Source: an uncultured delta proteobacterium (GTDB taxonomy: Bacteria; Desulfobacterota; Binatia; Binatales; Binataceae). Taken from it: 64,000 nucleotides of DNA. This document shows positions 13,960 to 32,336 of the stretch, in pieces (position 1 is the stretch's first letter; the number at the start of each line of letters is the position of its first letter). Location: NCBI GenBank assembly GCA_963711565.1, contig CAVQEQ010000003.1, positions 224,001 to 288,000 of the forward strand. The letters run 5' to 3'. The translations under genes were made by a program, and so were the position numbers. The notes below the pieces were generated by a model. It worked only from the letters and a program-made list of their open reading frames with translations, had not been told where the DNA came from and ran no database searches.

Positions 13960-13995
13960 GAGTGGAGGGCGCGCCGAGCGGCGCGCCCTCCACTC
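13960..13995. terminator. 17-bp perfect inverted repeat (hairpin) after the beta-propeller gene
   Basis: GAGTGGAGGGCGCGCCG-AG-CGGCGCGCCCTCCACTC; no U-tract. Confidence 0.5.
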
Positions 13996-14734: not shown

Positions 14735-15106
14735 CTAGAATGGAGCGTTTGCAGCCGGCTGGGCCGCCGCATCGCCGCGCCGTCCCAAGAACCGGATTTG
14801 CCGCGCGACGATTTCCGTGCGGTAACGCTTGCCGCTGCCGTCCTTCGCCTCGTACTCGCGGGTCGTCAGCCGTCCTTCGACGTAGACCTGGCGCCCCTTG
14901 CTGAGATACTCCGCGCATGTTTCGGCCAGCTTCCCGAAGGCCACGATGCGGTGCCATTCAGTCCGTCGCTGCTTCCCGCCATTGCGGTCGGTAAACCGCT
15001 CGGTCGTCGCCAGCGAAAGATTCGCCACGCTCTGACCCGACGGAAGAGTCCGCGCCTCGGGAGTCGCACCCAGATTGCCGATCACCGTTACACTGTTTAC
15101 TGCCAT
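14735..15106 (-). CDS. ssb: single-stranded DNA-binding protein
   Basis: MAVNSVTVIGNLG..PE.R...TEWHRIVAFGKLAE...KGRQVYVEGRL; C-terminal PF. Confidence 0.96.
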   Translation of the reverse strand: MAVNSVTVIGNLGATPEARTLPSGQSVANLSLATTERFTDRNGGKQRRTEWHRIVAFGKLAETCAEYLSKGRQVYVEGRLTTREYEAKDGSGKRYRTEIVARQIRFLGRRGDAAAQPAANAPF

Positions 15107-15123
15107 TTTCCTTCCTCCTGCGC

Positions 15124-15237
15124 CCGCTTCCCGTCTTCGGGCAGGGCGTTTGTTCCGTTTGCTTTGTGTCCCAAATGAAAAGAGGGAATTTTTTTTCCGG
15201 CCTCTCAAAAAAGAGTGGAGGCCGGAGAAAAAAATAA
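15124..15237. repeat. dispersed ~110-bp repeat, copy 1 (upstream of ssb)
   Basis: Near-identical to 32228-32336; contains the CCGGCCTCTC-AAAAAA-GAGTGGAGGCCGG hairpin. Confidence 0.9.
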
Positions 15238-15499
15238 GTCGGGGTGGAGCGGCGGTTGGGCGGTTACAATTTTGGATCGCGAAGACGCGGCGTCCTGCGG
15301 ACGCAGGACAGGACTGTTTTACCTTCTTTAATGCGGTTCGCGTCAAGGATTTTTTTACGTTTTGATTTTGCCCTGGCCAAGGACGCGCGACGCGGCAAGC
15401 CACCTCTTTAAATGCGGTTCGCGTCAAGGATTTTTTACGTTTTCATTTTGCCCTCTCCGTTAAAGCGATCGATGATGTCATCCCCATGCGAGCCTCGGC

Positions 15500-15740
15500 A
15501 GGTATCACGCTTCTTTCCGGGATCGGCGCCAGCATGAGCTTGCGTGAGGCGCGCCGTCCCAAATGACTGTCCATTCGAAGAGTGAAGCGGAACCATCTGG
15601 CCATCGTGGTCGCTCGGTCCTGAATTTCGACCGCCTCCACTAGGTAAAAGCCGTTCTCGCTCCAGTCTCTTCCCGTCCTGCCGGACGGCTCTTCGCCGAT
15701 AGTGGCGGCGGAGAAGCTAGATAAATCGTTTACTCCTTAA
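15500..15740 (-). ncRNA. putative bridge RNA/seekRNA
   Basis: Four short segments match the reconstructed target and donor junction halves (15719-24, 15642-49, 15597-603, 15510-16); RNA ends are approximate. Confidence 0.7.
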
Positions 15741-15748
15741 GTGATGGG

Positions 15749-16795
15749 CTAAGCTGCGGCCGCCAGCGCGTCAACGCCAGGCTGATTGAACCGGAACTCG
15801 GTTCCATCGCGCCACATCGCGTGCAGGATTACCGCGAGTCTGCGCGCTACCGCCACGCAGGCTTTTTTCTTCGAGCTGCGTTTAGCAAGGCGCAGGCCCC
15901 AAGCCTTCAGTGCACTCGGCTTGCCACGGGTGAGAAGCACAGTGGCGGCTTCAAAGAGATGCGATCGCAAGAACGCGTCGCCGCACTTGGTGATATGGCC
16001 GTCATAATCCACTTCCCCGGATGCATACTTCCTGGGTGTCAATCCGACCGCTGCGCCCACCGCCTTTGAACGCGCAAACCTTTGCGGCCGATCGATGGAT
16101 GTTTTGTACAAAAGGGCGGTCAAGGGTCCGATCCCTGGAGCCGTCATGAACCGACGGCATACTTCATCATCCCTGACGTGATCCAGAATCATCTTCTCCA
16201 GTTTCATCATCTGGACGATAAGCTCGCGCCGCACGGCCAGCATCGGAAAGATGTAAGCCTGGAGTTCCTGGTCGTCTCCAATCAGCTCGCGGATGCGCGG
16301 TTCATAAGAGCGAATCGTAACCTTGCCGGTCTTCATGCCGAACACTTTGAGCGTTCCCCGGATTTGACTGTCAATGTCGAGCCGCTTGTCCAGAAGGCAG
16401 CGGCGATTGTTGAGCAGAACGCGGAGCTTCTGACTGACGTGGCTTTTCAGGTGGACTTCTCGATACCAGCCAGTGCGCATGATGTGCGCAATGCCTCGGG
16501 CATCGTTGCGGTCAGTCTTGACTTGCTGTGCTTTAAGCGCCGCTTTCGCGTGCCGGGTTTCTATGCAGATGGCCGGATAGTTCAAGGACAAAAGCTCATG
16601 GCACAGCCAGGGCGTAAGACCGCCAGCTTCCAGGCCAACTCTCTCCATGGCGAGTCCGAGCTTGCCGAGCCACTCGTGGATGGCGGCAGGCTCCGTAGGC
16701 ACCTCGCCTTCGCGCACGATGTCGCCGTCCTGGTTCACGACGCACAACGCCGTGCTGTTCAATGACACGTCCAGACCGCAGAAATATTTCTTCAT
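15749..16795 (-). CDS. IS110 family transposase/recombinase
   Basis: DEDD RuvC-like motifs GLDVS, GLEAG, KTDRNDA; PGIG; catalytic-serine motif ASG; AVARRLA. Confidence 0.96.
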   Translation of the reverse strand: MKKYFCGLDVSLNSTALCVVNQDGDIVREGEVPTEPAAIHEWLGKLGLAMERVGLEAGGLTPWLCHELLSLNYPAICIETRHAKAALKAQQVKTDRNDARGIAHIMRTGWYREVHLKSHVSQKLRVLLNNRRCLLDKRLDIDSQIRGTLKVFGMKTGKVTIRSYEPRIRELIGDDQELQAYIFPMLAVRRELIVQMMKLEKMILDHVRDDEVCRRFMTAPGIGPLTALLYKTSIDRPQRFARSKAVGAAVGLTPRKYASGEVDYDGHITKCGDAFLRSHLFEAATVLLTRGKPSALKAWGLRLAKRSSKKKACVAVARRLAVILHAMWRDGTEFRFNQPGVDALAAAA

Positions 16796-17109
16796 AGCTG
16801 TTCTCCGTTGTTGATGGCAGGAAAGGTGAATCTACAGCCGGAACAGATCTTTTTCTATGCAGGGTCAGACTGTTCCGCTGGCTGCCGTCGAGCCGCATTA
16901 CAGTTATCTGGCCAAGGACGCGCGACGCGGCGAGCCACCATAATCCCCGGCGCCGCCATCGGTATAGCCGCGCGTCTGATCAACCAGCGGTCAGGGTGAT
17001 ACGTTGTCGGGCATAGACCCGCGAGAAGCGCTCGAGCGCGCTGAGTGTGTATTGCCGGAGGCGGAGGCAGATAGGCCGTCGCACGTCCCGGCCAAGATGC
17101 TGGTCCTGG

Positions 17110-32227: not shown

Positions 32228-32336
32228 CCGCTTCCCGTCCTCGGGCAGGGCGTTAATTCCGTCTTCGTGTCCCAAATGAAAAGGGGGAATTTTTCCCCGG
32301 CCTCTCAAAAAAGAGTGGAGGCCGGAAAACAAAATA
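32228..32336. repeat. dispersed ~110-bp repeat, copy 2
   Basis: Direct repeat of 15124-15237. Confidence 0.9.

Follow-up and report, generated by a model that had tools for sequence, protein, structure and literature searches.

How does an insertion sequence come to hold, between two copies of its own right terminus, a 29-bp near copy of the DNA at its left flank, and is that spacer a stored target, a working part of the element or a passenger? We addressed this question at one such locus of a soil bacterium, in the window, i.e., the whole 64,000-nucleotide stretch of DNA analyzed here, to which positions refer unless a locus is named; the features of the element, its target and the adjacent ssb gene all lie on the minus strand.

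An IS1111-type element with precise ends

The element spans 1583 bp (15325..16907) between cores at 15323-24 and 16908-09, limits that are set by empty-site joints in contigs. Its gene for a 348-aa recombinase (15749..16795), which is single-copy in the genome by tblastn, is recovered by the PF01548 and PF02371 profiles as well as by NF033542 (246.6 bits against a cut-off of 140), and the DEDD and Transposase_20 domains of the product assign it to the IS110 family. The left end (16885..16907) holds a subterminal inverted repeat, which agrees at 11 of 12 bp and is, by our own reading, spaced 7 and 4 bp away from the cores; the rule for IS1111, as given in the available text of PMC11187229 and PMC11208160, sets the distances to the ends at 7 (or 6) and 3 bp. 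Empty sites, in which 15322 is joined to 16908 with two shared letters, are present in contigs of four runs from four studies (X1, X3, X6 and X8) and end at the outer of the two terminus copies; hence, the outer copy is the end of the element and the spacer lies inside it. Insertion is precise at the 2-bp core and entails no long target duplication, the 29-bp copy being internal to the element. The window's genome contains no second copy or solo terminus, and contigs of six runs contain no back-joint of a circular form; a −35-like hexamer is present at the terminus, and no sigma-70 consensus promoter was found. The element is an IS1111-type insertion sequence, an identity proposed in the preliminary description and one on which the recombinase profiles and the downstream guides agree, and it has a predicted bridge RNA.

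The right end is a repeat-spacer-repeat structure

Read inwards from the flank, the right end consists of a CT at 15323-24, the outer copy of the terminus, a CT at 15373-74, the spacer, a CT at 15404-05, the inner copy and a CT at 15453-54. The outer copy (48 bp; 15325..15372) is the functional right terminus by its clade consensus, its match to the predicted donor guide and the empty sites, and it holds an A-tract, a −35-like TTGACG, the subterminal inverted repeat and the donor half-site. The inner copy (47 bp; 15406..15452) is 94% identical to the outer one over 51 columns, with some of the differences falling in homopolymers. The 29-bp spacer (15375..15403) equals 16910-16938 save for one base, an A at 15397 as against a G at 16932 (28/29), and its sequence has matches at only two places in the 4.84-Mb genome when up to five mismatches are allowed. 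The coordinates given earlier for the two terminus copies and the flank-like spacer hold; Tandem Repeats Finder detected nothing here. The accompanying claim that both junctions fall on the CT/AG core stands for the junction of spacer and outer copy; the inner junction, by contrast, reads as AG only with three substitutions or two slips relative to the clade-consensus terminus, and an equally short alternative, a single inserted T, turns the core into GG.

Predicted guides match the target and the outer terminus

Downstream (3′) of the recombinase gene lies a long non-coding region with predicted guides that match both target and donor, as in other IS1111 elements. We place the bridge RNA in it at 15497..15700, with approximate boundaries, from an alignment of 11 right-end regions and from guide-target matching in 16 elements; its predicted guides are the RTG (15649-15642), the LTG (15603-15597), the RDG (about 15570-15563) and the LDG (15516-15510), the register of the right guide having been set from the real flank. 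At the aligned place after the stop codon, 14 of the 16 elements match their left target exactly over at least 5 nt, and the donor guide matches its own terminus, variants included, in 16/16, a count to be read with the guide motif having also anchored the region. L023 (2600-2700) departs from most of the clade in the poor agreement of its predicted left guide with its own left flank (3/7). Rfam returned no family at threshold for the right-end region or the targets.

The donor guide of the window's element matches the outer end at 5/5 positions and the inner end at 2/5 in register with the AG core, or at 5/5 if a GG core with one T inserted further in is assumed, and the inner boundary matches the left end at 2–3/7; given the 2/5 match in register, we predict that the inner copy is inactive. 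The predicted guides fit the target and, of the two terminus copies, the outer one alone, and the spacer is therefore not needed as a guide; it also lies beyond the conserved RNA region, and the array folds no better than its shuffles (z +0.9). Around the core at 15373-74, the spacer and the outer copy together rebuild a near-cognate target inside the element (15366..15381), which agrees with the target guides at 9/14 positions (5/7 + 4/7), a score reached by none of 419 background AG sites, as against 11/14 at the true target. These matches support the earlier proposal that the left half of the target was joined at AG to a pseudo-target within the element. Near-cognate internal sites occur in 2 of the 13 elements with parsed guides. 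Each of the two aberrant joining sites has one poorly matching side: the upstream breakpoint agrees with the target guides at 1/7 and 2/7, and the internal pseudo-site agrees with the donor guide at 0/5, so that a mis-join there needs a half-match reaction.

The target is a repeat with a predicted hairpin, often upstream of ssb

The left flank (16910..16938) and the right flank (15272..15322) are the 5′ and 3′ arms of a target repeat, downstream of which lies ssb (14735..15109; PF00436, TIGR00621). Empty copies of this target are found in other species of the genus, in 3/46 by the left arm and in 4/46 by the right arm. ORFs named ssb-like by sequence likeness, Pfam having been run on the window's gene only, lie within 1.5 kb downstream of three of eight copies (L084, L089 and L328) in addition to the window, and none was seen at the other five. 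The preliminary description took the spacer for a copy of the element's own insertion flank; the target is instead a repeat family, and two other species have the variant base of the spacer in their empty targets (L181 and L182).

Conservation of the target begins about 27 bp before the core, and six natural targets share a predicted 24-pair consensus hairpin of ~80 nt, in which 5/24 pairs display two-sided changes (6–13 of 500 shuffles), although these sequences are related, two of them being near-identical. Their single-sequence folding z-scores are weak (−0.6 to −1.7). When the empty site of the window is modeled, the two arms form 16–24 expected pairs as against 4–8 for shuffled arms, and the outermost predicted pair, at 16937, is within 1–2 nt of the 5′ limit of the spacer. 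In the filled allele, RNA energies pair the spacer with the right flank (10–24 expected pairs versus 0.6–7.8 for shuffled arms), a value that halves in a longer context, whereas DNA energies yield 0.3–1.3 pairs on either strand versus 16–21 in the empty site. The spacer is the 5′ arm of this predicted target hairpin, which belongs to a repeat often placed upstream of ssb in the genus. Long imperfect hairpins upstream of ssb or ardC-like genes characterize single-strand promoters of the Frpo/ssi type, to which the target may be related.

Upstream DNA diverges at 16936-16942 in all target copies in the reads and in the relatives, which suggests from the sequence comparison that this may be the boundary of a mobile ssb cassette. 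Elsewhere in the window, the ssb leader (15124-15236) recurs at 32228-32336 (88%), there with neither the target hairpin nor ssb, and a perfect inverted repeat (17 bp, 2-nt loop) follows the NHL-repeat gene at 13960-13995. The genomes of L006, L322 and L334 contain a repeat of ~135 bp with inverted ends, and related IS1111 elements insert at either of these ends.

The spacer is constant across samples

Six of the 22 listed sequencing runs were examined, all as contigs, which drop rare variants. The structure is bridged by contigs in X2 (15285-15484, with 0 differences, possibly the window's own strain), X3 (15265-16831), X4 (15335-16938) and X8 (15285-15448). Between them, these contigs from four runs of four studies span the region 15300-15470, in which the earlier description had asked for read support. 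The structure is real and heritable, and an assembly artefact, for which one might point to the copy differences that fall in homopolymers, is refuted by these independent contigs and has a negligible probability. Nor does "one-off" fully describe the product: every bridging contig has the structure, and one relative (L006, below) made a capture independently.

Positions 15375-15403 are without any difference in X2, X3, X4 and X8, while the element bodies differ at up to 10 of 1509 bp. In X4, a single contig has 10 differences, none of them at 15397 or 16932, and continues into other DNA past 16938; the A allele of the spacer has thus been kept beside the G allele of the flank. In X8, the element-bearing contig departs at 16936 and is separate from the contig that holds the spacer. 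The same spacer where the upstream DNA differs, together with the X4 allele that is at odds with the local flank, indicates that the spacer is not rewritten at each insertion and is carried unchanged as a passenger. The differing upstream contexts could represent separate transpositions, as against one insertion in a cassette that moved, although this is weakly supported (flank differences, 2/58; element differences, 10/1509; p about 0.06). No allele collapsed by 80–81 bp was present in contigs of the six runs.

Doubled ends and captured targets are rare among relatives

Of the 20 close relatives tried, the window included, 16 allowed both ends to be located. The stretch between the bridge RNA and the terminus measures 26–340 bp in these 16 clade members; it resembles the element's own left flank in two (the window and L006) and its own right flank in one (L002), the left-flank copy being absent in 14/16. 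The wider survey drew on 111 loci with enough downstream DNA, comprising 50 with a recognizable terminus and 61 more that lack a match to the terminus motif. We left out L145, L158, L171, L174 and L057, whose long perfect self-hits are slicing artefacts, and also dropped L121 and L131, which probably reflect edges or overlaps, as well as L046, L134, L142 and L149, which are weak or without a terminus; two unpublished genomes (G018 and G023) enter the tallies only. Among the homologues checked for end repeats and flank-like spacers, the doubled terminus is confined to 1/50 loci with a recognizable terminus, and a captured target unit is found in one other of the 16 clade members. The latter, L006, holds near its right end (2800-2945) an entire repeat unit of ~135 bp that has inverted ends and is bounded by cores; this is a whole hairpin unit of the target of L006 and is also found without this element in another genome. 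As L006 has no inner terminus, it is a parallel to the window's structure and not the same structure.

Pattern searches for termini in the genomes of relatives recovered one terminus in each of nine and none in the tenth. Searches for the DNA of the element gave no match in 46 other genomes of the genus or in 400 genomes of the phylum, matches in 2/164 genomes of the family (L005 again and one remnant without ends) and in 2/401 of the class of G067, both already known. Plasmid matches are distant (49–56% among the best hits listed), the viral scans gave no close element, and relatives at 48–60% identity among the matches listed from a metagenome scan serve as background only.

Other right ends of the clade have peculiarities of their own. 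One close relative (L003, 2790-4008, and L310, G069:C32:68774-71794) has a second IS110-like gene inside the right end, ~2 kb before the terminus, and the non-coding region of this nested element displays two tandem, diverged copies of a segment like a guide loop. L001 (2780-3115) and L002 (2770-3080) share a ~180-bp right-end segment (77% identical) ending in a palindrome that is also found at the start of both right flanks; a 35-bp piece of their variable region precedes a gene in one element-free locus. The gene after L001 is presumably ArdC-like.

Origin of the doubled end

The doubled right end is probably a fossil, now fixed, of two mis-joins made by the RNA-guided recombinase of the element. 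In the first, a one-sided reaction, the right terminus would be linked to the predicted hairpin base of a target copy, ~30 bp upstream, which would give a terminus-spacer-left end product, either a circle or a tandem dimer. The left half-site of the target would then be joined to an A-rich pseudo-target 49 bp inside the right end of the second copy, which would delete the body of that copy and leave only its terminus. With the donor-guide match of the inner terminus lost, exit would proceed by the outer end only and the spacer would ride along. For the first of these steps, a precedent is the ISPpu9 circle in which 150 bp of left flank separate the two ends, as reported in the available text of bioRxiv 10.1101/2025.01.17.633520, and for the second, a top-strand transfer in which the target loop by itself guides the left junction, as described in the part of the CazIS110 preprint at hand. 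LD-bounded non-coding repeats and flank-homologous 3′ regions are likewise on record for IS110 (bioRxiv 10.64898/2026.08.14.744561, available portion), and published IS110 chemistry can make the junction of spacer and outer copy. The ends, the invariance of the spacer and the guide matches, which favor the mis-joins, are observed; the flank-bearing circle, dimer and solo terminus that would be their intermediates were not seen in the contigs, where rare forms are invisible. A neutral tandem repeat might also be expected to give the collapsed allele that the six runs lack.

That same lack is among the points that favor selection, in which a spacer that arose by mis-joining would have been kept for returning the 5′ arm of the hairpin to a place no more than 51 bp from the 3′ arm. 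Some IS1111 elements would then mend the structured site that they break, the hairpin re-forming by the ssb leader and the capture being structure-bounded. Integrative elements carry a tRNA fragment, which provides an analogy. The end of the spacer at the predicted stem base, the two-sided changes, the re-pairing under RNA energies and the whole hairpin unit in L006 all point this way; however, DNA energies fail to restore the pairing, the RNA pairing is halved in longer context, the natural targets fold weakly and are related to one another, and most clade members are without the left-flank copy, leaving us to regard such repair as unlikely. Slightly less likely again is that host replication made the structure without recombinase chemistry, through two template switches at short homologies (GGT and AG) around the hairpin: the imperfect inner junction fits a 3-nt homology and replication could plausibly stall at the base of the predicted hairpin, but three of the four internal boundaries lie exactly on recombination cores or element termini, and the available text of bioRxiv 10.64898/2026.08.14.744561 reports donor half-match enrichment at such boundaries. 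We consider it improbable that the near-cognate target rebuilt in the element works as a landing pad or a decoy, for tandem growth or self-limitation; internal near-cognate sites do recur in the elements with parsed guides, but neither an insertion at such a site nor a longer array was found in the six runs or in 164 loci, and the site has three mismatches to the right guide. Lower still we rate a CRISPR-like memory, in which each new flank would be written into the end and used as a guide, a reading to which the repeat-spacer-repeat layout and the 28/29 match to the local flank lend themselves. The spacer is invariant where flanks differ, the predicted bridge-RNA guides already track the target, the doubled terminus is a rarity, and the spacer lies outside the conserved RNA in an array that folds like its shuffles. 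Spacers that vary between copies and follow the target, as in CRISPR/TIGR-like systems, were not found, and we reject this reading as largely refuted, and with it the suggestion that the end is a way of storing target-site sequence.

Comparison with known systems

Taken as the remains of mis-joins, the locus is a base-resolved natural record of half-match side reactions of a bridge recombinase, which matters for the use of these enzymes as editors. Were the spacer selected for hairpin restoration, it would be a damage-limiting trait, which we have not found described for IS110; an IS110 end that restores a target hairpin was likewise not found in the full texts searched, a coverage outside which most subscription papers lie.

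The papers compared here, PMC13626964 being a further member of the set, are taken to the extent of their available text. The expanded IS110 loci of Hu et al. 2026 (bioRxiv 10.64898/2026.08.14.744561) have in common with the window an extended 3′ non-coding region homologous to the flank, which in the window lies inside ends defined by empty sites. These authors describe 468 tandem non-coding repeat units whose boundaries keep only the LD half-site, with half-match reactions as the proposed cause; the term IS1111 is absent from the main text as available. Unlike those loci, the window's capture corresponds precisely to a single arm of its predicted target hairpin, and its structure is fixed across studies; it also rebuilds a near-cognate target internally, whereas Hu et al. 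note that insertion regenerates no target. ISPpu9 of Pseudomonas putida (bioRxiv 10.1101/2025.01.17.633520) shares the AG core, a REP target, nested ends and a flank-holding circle, but it belongs to the IS110 group, has its RNA in the left end and features modules with both ends that move alone, in contrast to the window's extra module, which has no left end. The IS1111 seekRNA/bridge RNA systems (PMC11187229, PMC11208160) have the same recombinase family, a downstream guide region, subterminal inverted repeats and no true target duplication in common with the window, which differs from them in having two copies of the right terminus and, between these, an arm of the target. The target of ISPpu10 (bioRxiv 10.64898/2026.03.19.712850) is likewise an intergenic repeat that includes a stem-loop; this stem-loop is found 5′ of the insertion site, whereas the window's core falls within the 5′ arm of a predicted hairpin that is longer. 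Accordingly, the structure is most likely a variant of the class already described in Hu et al. and for ISPpu9, to which it adds a capture boundary that coincides, here and in one relative, with the predicted base of the target hairpin, and a product that rebuilds a near-cognate target inside the element.
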